Position numbers and translations under genes: made by a program
The notes under the pieces: generated by a model
The model's input: only the letters and a program-made list of their open reading frames with translations
Database searches by the model: none
Told to the model about the DNA's origin: nothing
In this document: positions 15,714-15,847 of the stretch, piece by piece
Numbering within the stretch: position 1 is the first letter of the stretch
Layout of the letters: each line of letters opens with the position of its first letter
Assembly (NCBI GenBank): GCA_945888435.1
Contig: CAMCZW010000002.1
Location: 14,014 to 78,013 of the forward strand
Reading direction: 5' to 3'
Source of the DNA: a bacterium UBP8_UBA817
GTDB taxonomy: Bacteria; Margulisbacteria; Marinamargulisbacteria; SXXA01; SICP01
DNA: 64,000 nt

Positions 15714-15847
15714 ACTTACTTATTCCCCTCTCTTAGAGGGGTGGTACGAAGTGACGGGGTGGTCAGCGATACCAAGTAACTACCCCGTCTCTGTCATCGC
15801 TGACGCAATGTCAGATCCACCCCTTCCTGGAAGGGGAATAAGTAAGT
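15714..15847. repeat. 134-bp structured palindromic element bounded by perfect 15-bp inverted repeats
   Basis: Left arm acttacttattcccc (15714-15728) is the exact reverse complement of right arm ggggaataagtaagt (15833-15847). Internal nested hairpins are cccctct/agagggg, gtcagcgat/atcgctgac, gacggggt/accccgtc and ccccttcc-t-ggaagggg. It lies between the DoxX stop and the queE start. Confidence 0.8.

Follow-up and report, generated by a model that had tools for sequence, protein, structure and literature searches.

An intergenic palindrome of 134 bp, at positions 15714-15847 of a 64-kb window (the whole stretch of DNA analysed here) from an uncultured freshwater member of the Margulisbacteria, is a lineage-specific insertion, and its structure is far beyond chance. 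It is assigned to no strand, and its sequence matches the earlier description of it. We tentatively read it as an insertion or mobile relic, that is, as an orphan or low-copy non-autonomous palindromic element with REPIN/MITE-like architecture, a plausible interpretation that still carries considerable doubt. In kind the element is ordinary: small palindromic intergenic insertions are known from many bacteria, and this is a new, so far single-copy example of them. It would add one orphan insertion to a poorly sampled uncultured phylum and change little else, apart from illustrating that a bufferin-type copper-peptide operon and a queuosine gene can have such a sequence inserted between them with neither of them disrupted.

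Both flanking genes are carried on the minus strand. On one side is the DoxX gene (15849-16295, minus strand), the last of its operon, with a TAA stop at 15849-15851. Upstream of it are the operon members DUF2063/HvfC (16315-17121) and MbnB/DUF692 (17108-17956), followed by a putative RiPP precursor (17968-18306, minus strand) of 112 amino acids with a signal peptide and a CKGANGC motif. DoxX, HvfC, MbnB and the precursor correspond to the gene content of bufferin-type copper-binding RiPP operons (PMC11626156). Downstream of the element, queE (15002-15652, minus strand) encodes a 216-aa radical-SAM protein, identified as 7-carboxy-7-deazaguanine synthase from the names of its homologues. An earlier note on this DNA had placed the element between a RiPP operon ending in DoxX and queE, and the assignments to DoxX, DUF2063/HvfC and MbnB/DUF692, together with the QueE-named homologues, bear out both identities. 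Its distances were right on the queE side, where about 60 nt had been given and 61 nt are counted from the element to the ATG at 15652, and wrong by one on the other, where a single nucleotide (base 15848) and not two separates the DoxX stop from the element. As for the putative precursor itself, it is rich in Ala, Thr and Lys, is encoded by DNA with seven copies of a degenerate 27-nt repeat, carries the CKGANGC motif once, in its centre, and has no Pfam match. For the host, an uncultured member of the Margulisbacteria, the genome in GTDB that comes closest by QueE bears the label 'Candidatus Marinamargulisbacteria', and farther homologues are named Margulisiibacteriota.

Architecture and fold of the element

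The element has a GC content of 51.5%, compared with 42.7% for the window. Its terminal inverted repeat, ACTTACTTATTCCCC / GGGGAATAAGTAAGT, is perfect over 16 bp (15714-15729 / 15832-15847), with ACTTACTTATTCCCCT as the outer 16 nt on the left and the complement on the right; the perfect ends reported earlier are confirmed, at a length of 16 and not 15 bp. Imperfect inverted symmetry reaches up to 31 nt inwards (15714-15744 / 15817-15847), at 81% complementarity. The two 31-nt arms, neither of which is assigned to a strand, share a common layout of an 11-nt tail, a small GC hairpin of their own and TGG (CCA in the inverted right arm). In the left arm (15714-15744) these are the tail ACTTACTTATT, the hairpin CCCCTCT-CTT-AGAGGGG (15725-15741) and TGG, and the right arm (15817-15847) is an inverted copy made up of CCA, the hairpin CCCCTTCC-T-GGAAGGGG (15820-15836) and the tail AATAAGTAAGT. 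Set side by side, the hairpins of the two arms are distinguished by two compensatory swaps of base pairs (C-G/T-A versus T-A/C-G), so that each local hairpin is kept and the pairing of one arm with the other is weakened.

Between the arms lies a 72-nt spacer (15745-15816, no strand assigned) that contains two mutually exclusive helices, both perfect: one of 9 bp, GTCAGCGAT/ATCGCTGAC (15762-15770 / 15796-15804), and one of 8 bp, GACGGGGT/ACCCCGTC (15753-15760 / 15782-15789). Because they are interleaved, with a linker of 1 nt, the two cannot both form in full at the same time. All four sub-palindromes named in the earlier note, which had described nested GC-rich hairpins, are found in the sequence. 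The element is non-coding, its sole open frame giving a 64-aa antisense ORF (P0217).

Folded as RNA, the element reaches -71.9 kcal/mol on the minus strand and -71.7 kcal/mol on the plus strand, against about -38 +/- 4 for the 200 dinucleotide shuffles that served as baseline (z = -8.5 and -8.8, respectively; 0/200 shuffles equally stable). The predicted transcript helix comprises 18 uninterrupted terminal pairs and about 28 in total across an internal loop and a bulge. As single-stranded DNA the element folds at about -38 kcal/mol. Placed in its 251-nt intergenic context, it behaves as an independent folding module, closed on itself in the minimum-free-energy fold. That the whole is a chance palindrome or an assembly artefact has a negligible probability, and we regard both options as refuted, the first by the shuffles, none of which folds as well (z about -8.5), and the second by independent assemblies, given that the identical sequence recurs in MEGAHIT, scaffold-level, NCBI MAG and Logan assemblies from many samples.

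Relatives, insertion site and population

The nearest relative, a 'Candidatus Marinamargulisbacteria' genome with QueE 83-85% identical, keeps the order of DoxX followed by queE, with a spacer of 77 nt that is unstructured (z = 0.18). Alignment of the two spacers reveals homology on both sides of the element, namely GAGTA(A/G)G where the stop codon lies and ACA(T/G)TCTTC...GG beyond; between these blocks the relative is missing the 134 bp and has about 13 unrelated nucleotides in their place. In three further relatives (QueE 86%, 80% and 62% identical), queE has different neighbours and a short upstream region, again without the element, which was thus found upstream of queE in none of the four closest relatives. 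The homology of the flanks in the relative's element-free spacer, the absence of the element from the other relatives and its raised GC content together identify it as a lineage-specific insertion. Its absence from relatives is also a strong argument against a dedicated conserved leader of queE.

No target-site duplication was found, either at the boundaries of the 134 bp or at any symmetric trimming of the ends. The plus-strand flanks read ...GTA before the element and CTT... after it, and the only direct repeat nearby, GTAAG (minus strand), would make the ends asymmetric. Because there is no such duplication, a mechanism of the REP/RAYT type, or another non-DDE mechanism, fits better than that of a classical MITE.

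Within the species, the element is present in more than 12 independent assemblies, and the locus is found in numerous assemblies from ENA, Logan and NCBI, including the MAG GCA_947493445.1; the sample names point to stream metagenomes. Every assembly of the species that spans the site has the element, which is therefore fixed in the sampled population and makes a handy presence/absence marker for it. The only population SNP inside the element is at 15762 (G/T on the plus strand), where it affects the outermost pair of the 9-bp helix and shifts the minimum free energy by 1.5-4 kcal/mol. Since haplotypes diverge by only 0.05-0.08% in this nearly clonal population, one SNP in 134 nt is uninformative on constraint. 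Elsewhere in the window, one assembly departs from the others: in GROS21 scaffold_1027 (L115 1-2583 compared with L114 1996-4761; window 7650-10415), ORFs of 585 and 255 amino acids replace a 921-aa UvrA-like gene, and the start of the contig matches an internal segment out of order. Either the strain differs by a rearrangement or duplication, or the assembly is at fault here.

Search for copies and comparison with known mobile elements

The earlier note had proposed a MITE/REP-like mobile element, to be checked by counting copies and looking for target-site duplications; in the DNA searched we found neither a second copy nor a duplication. There is no second copy of the terminal repeat or of the whole element in the 64-kb window, and none in about 18 kb of additional flanks, i.e. 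in about 82 kb of this genome in total, within which the conserved 16-mer is found only inside the element. A paired-terminal-repeat pattern had zero matches in IMG/VR and, with 89-119 nt between the ends, zero matches in 185,579 GTDB species genomes, a collection that does not contain the source locus. In JGI metagenomes, a 19-nt end pattern matched 13 loci, all of them chance single ends without further similarity, and no contig had two ends; blastn against plasmids and phages also gave no copy. A search of 1.84 billion representative proteins with the peptide from the sole open frame retrieved only P0217, the positive control, and long repetitive proteins, at a low sensitivity, since few assemblies have an ORF called over the element; the short, multi-stretch matches of the 64-aa ORF to the long repetitive proteins are taken as spurious. 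Given a single copy over about 82 kb, we consider a family of high copy number unlikely (more than about 50 copies for a genome of a few megabases), and a low-copy family is possible.

Assembly graphs were also considered as evidence on copy number. Two Logan k=31 contigs stop exactly 30 nt into the right arm, as they would at the edge of a repeat. By contrast, the left arm is crossed unbroken by a contig from the same sample, which stops at the last 31-mer with the SNP at 15762, which indicates that the breaks track variant bubbles and that the left arm is not repeated at the level of 31-mers. The break in the right arm could equally reflect a variant at 15848 or 15817, but against this the roughly 12 ENA/NCBI assemblies spanning the site contain no such variant. 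As breaks follow SNP bubbles, we regard them as ambiguous evidence of multiple copies.

The architecture of the element is that of a small mobile palindrome. At 134 bp and non-coding, it falls in the size range of MITEs (about 50-500 bp), and its perfect 16-bp ends, extending to 31 nt at 81%, are the terminal inverted repeats expected of them. REPINs are defined by two inverted conserved ends that each overlap a small palindrome, a less conserved spacer that forms a hairpin, and compensatory changes (PMC3116915); they are REP doublets forming hairpins and are mobilised by RAYT tyrosine transposases (PMC3116915). The element likewise has two inverted REP-like palindromes and a spacer and is able to form one long hairpin. 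It resembles REPINs in its inverted conserved ends over small imperfect palindromes, its pairing spacer, its compensatory changes, its extragenic position near gene ends and its lack of a target-site duplication, and even in the length of the spacer (72 nt, compared with 71 bp between the 16-mers in a GI-type REPIN; PMC3116915). It differs from them in number and company, as REPINs occur in tens to hundreds per genome beside a cognate RAYT, whereas here about 82 kb yield a single copy and the window lacks a RAYT. What stands of the mobile-element proposal is thus the architecture (terminal inverted repeats, inverted arms bearing hairpins, non-coding sequence, insertion relative to the relative's spacer); what it lacks is a second copy, a target-site duplication and a cognate transposase, none of which was found.

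No transposase, integrase or RAYT appears among the Pfam matches of the window genes, and the genes not described here individually are ordinary chromosomal housekeeping genes (dnaB, pgi, dapF, aroA, ilvC, pgk, gap, tgt, prfA, accA/D, pnp, cysS and others). Integron attC core sites (RYYYAAC/GTTRRRY) were sought at the ends of the element and not found: the ends read ACTTAC.../...GTAAGT, and the nearest candidates, ATGTAAC and GTTACAT, break the consensus. A RAYT-like gene with 38-nt inverted flanks does occur on L106, the contig of the QueE relative at 62% identity. Its closest homologues lie on contigs of 28-37% GC (including L118-L124) that come from other organisms in a similar metagenome series. 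That RAYT genes flanked by REP-like arms exist on such contigs counts towards the mobile reading, but these genes show no link to the element, the repeats that flank them (AAAGGTGTCAGAG...) being unrelated to it in sequence; the tails of its arms, ACTTACTTATT in the left one, have no relation to the REP-like repeats on L106, L118 and L124. As an observation in its own right, the Y1_Tnp (RAYT-like) genes at L106 180-940, L118 276-2743 and L124 490-1142 are flanked by inverted REP-like repeats AAAGGTGTCAGAG.../...CTCTGACACCTTT, which on L118 form arrays on both sides of the gene.

Among better-known families, the Correia/NEMIS elements of Neisseria and the ERIC/IRU elements of enterobacteria are non-coding sequences of 100-160 bp with terminal inverted repeats that occupy transcribed intergenic sites near stop codons. 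Their RNAs form long hairpins, and cleavage of these by RNase III or RNase E alters the stability of the flanking mRNAs. The elements are present in many copies and are accompanied by a target-site duplication of TA (or other sequence), and those of the Correia family also have an IHF site and promoters directed outwards. The element shares with these families its size, non-coding nature, terminal inverted repeats, position near a stop codon and long RNA hairpin; it differs from them in that a target-site duplication, many copies, an IHF site and outward promoters were not found for it.

The window contains four perfect CCCC...GGGG hairpins where 0.26 would be expected. The arms of the element account for two, and the remaining two (23186-23201 and 24916-24938) form part of a distinct inverted pair with a shared tail of its own, their similarity to the element being limited to the 18-nt hairpin. 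This excess, which counts towards the mobile reading, is a hint that small repeats with a GC hairpin characterise this genome. REPIN-like replicators are mainly described in certain groups of bacteria. We think it unlikely that the element gives a first view of a REPIN-like family, equipped with a transposase of its own, in the candidate phylum Margulisbacteria; if the full genome did show such a family and a dedicated transposase, REPIN-like replicators would extend beyond those groups.

The main alternative to a mobile origin is that the element evolved locally, for instance by inverted duplication or template switching, as a non-mobile structured intercistronic element, and was kept because an RNA hairpin, a DNA cruciform or a protein-binding site separates expression of the bufferin operon from that of queE. 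Both parts of this alternative, origin and retention, are possible but doubtful. A single copy as far as visible, the lack of a target-site duplication, the preservation of both arm hairpins by compensatory changes and fixation in all sampled assemblies are what such an origin would lead one to see. However, a gain of 134 nt with perfect 16-bp ends and raised GC content, adjoining a stop codon, looks like an insertion and not like gradual change, no relative has an intermediate form, and there is no sign of constraint beyond the arms in a population that is nearly clonal.

Consequences for transcripts and other features of the window

Coming back to the reading as a mobile relic, the following course of events can be proposed. 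A non-coding, self-complementary sequence would have been inserted 1 nt after the DoxX stop of the bufferin-type operon, having arrived as, or later decayed from, a low-copy non-autonomous mobile palindromic element, probably by a mechanism without target-site duplication (REP/RAYT-type or similar, rather than DDE-type). On transcription of the operon, the element would fold into an intercistronic RNA hairpin, which may act as a barrier to 3' exonucleases and/or as a processing site for a double-strand RNase. Hairpins of the Correia/NEMIS, ERIC and REP type are known to shield upstream mRNA from 3' exonucleases or to be cut by RNase III. By analogy, such a barrier or processing site might uncouple queE from the bufferin operon, with a promoter-like site downstream of the element then serving queE. 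The element would matter more if transcripts showed that the hairpin sets the 3' end or the stability of the bufferin mRNA.

The promoter-like site lies in the gap between the element and queE (15660-15689, minus strand) and reads AGGACA, 18 nt, TG-n-TAAAAT; it is a match to the consensus only, and sites of this kind are no more numerous in the region than chance predicts. If the site is real, the queE mRNA would, going by its position, be leaderless or near-leaderless. The -10-like TG-n-TAAAAT ends 7 nt before the queE ATG, and there is no clear Shine-Dalgarno sequence there, unlike in the relative L104, which has a clear AAGGAG upstream.

Of the suggestion that the element is a bidirectional terminator/insulator, a classical intrinsic terminator is not supported, as none of the stems, read on either strand, runs into a U-tract. 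A scan of both strands for intrinsic terminators found none at 15714-15847, where the stems are followed by AAUAAGUAAGU. Like intrinsic terminators, the element has GC-rich hairpins immediately behind an operon's last gene; it differs in having no U-tract and in being four to five times larger. A role of its hairpin as barrier or processing site is possible.

The earlier note had also considered a structured 5' leader dedicated to queE, and had reasoned that an element unique in the genome and conserved in position among relatives would favour this over a repeat. The element is unique as far as visible, but its position is not conserved. The proposed leader finds no counterpart in Rfam and no support in relatives, the four closest of which lack the element upstream of queE. 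The Rfam check suggested at the time gave no match to any family at the locus, preQ1 riboswitches included: between 15300 and 16300, neither preQ1-I, -II or -III nor any other family matched at E <= 10, and Rfam at gathering score and ARAGORN gave nothing over the whole window. Like a preQ1 riboswitch, the element is a structured sequence (as RNA) upstream of a queuosine-pathway gene; it differs in having no covariance-model match, in being much larger than the preQ1-I aptamer and in not being conserved upstream of queE.

A cis-regulatory leader of queE, riboswitch- or attenuator-like, in which alternative helices expose or hide the start region, accordingly has a slim chance. The mutually exclusive helices that it needs are present in the element, in which CACCCCGUC can pair at 8 of 9 positions with the queE start region GACGGGAUG, a mimic of its normal partner GACGGGGUG, and GGAAGGGGUG can pair at 9 of 10 with CACCCCUCCC in the leader. 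However, complementarities of 9-10 nt are expected by chance among so many G- and C-runs (we estimate about 0.8 such matches), and the element is closed on itself in the minimum-free-energy fold of the full spacer. The lack of an Rfam match even at the permissive threshold and the missing element in all close relatives count against a leader as well, and the promoter-like site downstream of the element would exclude it from the queE transcript. A more specific version, a lineage-specific RNA switch in which read-through transcripts of the metal-responsive bufferin operon carry the mutually exclusive helices and CACCCCGUC exchanges GACGGGGUG for the near-identical queE start GACGGGAUG, is highly improbable. 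If true, it would tie the synthesis of the queuosine precursor to read-through from the operon or to a ligand.

An independent small RNA gene, or an sRNA derived from the 3'UTR of the bufferin operon, is a further option with a slim chance. A very stable, compact fold of 134 nt at the 3' end of an operon is what one would look for in such an RNA, but it belongs to no Rfam family, has no promoter or terminator signature at its borders and is not conserved in relatives. In addition, the fold is as good on one strand as on the other, as is usual for a DNA palindrome but not for a strand-specific RNA gene.

Several other features of the window were recorded in passing. A GC-rich inverted pair of about 30-35 nt, TTAAC-CTC-CCCCAACCCC-TC...GAGGGG, is located at 23170-23201 (plus strand) and 24916-24955 (minus strand), with 2 matches to the pattern against 0.05 expected and a local alignment p < 0.003. 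The copies, each with its own CCCC...GGGG hairpin, are 1.75 kb apart, bracket genes for a SpoU methylase and a polysaccharide pyruvyl-transferase, and would be complementary to each other on a minus-strand mRNA. At the second of them, a nested palindrome at 24895-24957 (TAACACTCA...TGAGTGTTA) covers the likely true start AGAGGGATG near 24906. Two palindromes unrelated to the 134-bp element share the 133-nt gap that leads from a GATase gene to an AAA_14/DUF4143 ATPase gene: a perfect one of 50 bp at 6300-6349, with 25-nt arms and no loop, and a second, AT-rich palindrome with a 31-nt direct repeat at 6367-6429. Another GC-rich hairpin, at 29198-29230 in the spacer between the divergent genes for ilvC and a LysR-type regulator, has a perfect stem of 15 bp (CCCGTAGGGGCGTAT / ATACGCCCCTACGGG). 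GC skew is strongly positive (0.09-0.27) in 2-kb bins sampled every 4 kb, regardless of gene orientation, with 48-50 kb as the only exception. There, the stretch at 48001-50000 combines the reversed skew with a low GC content (31% against about 43%) and coincides with a 569-aa ORF (48275-49984, minus strand) without a Pfam match; it may be foreign DNA.
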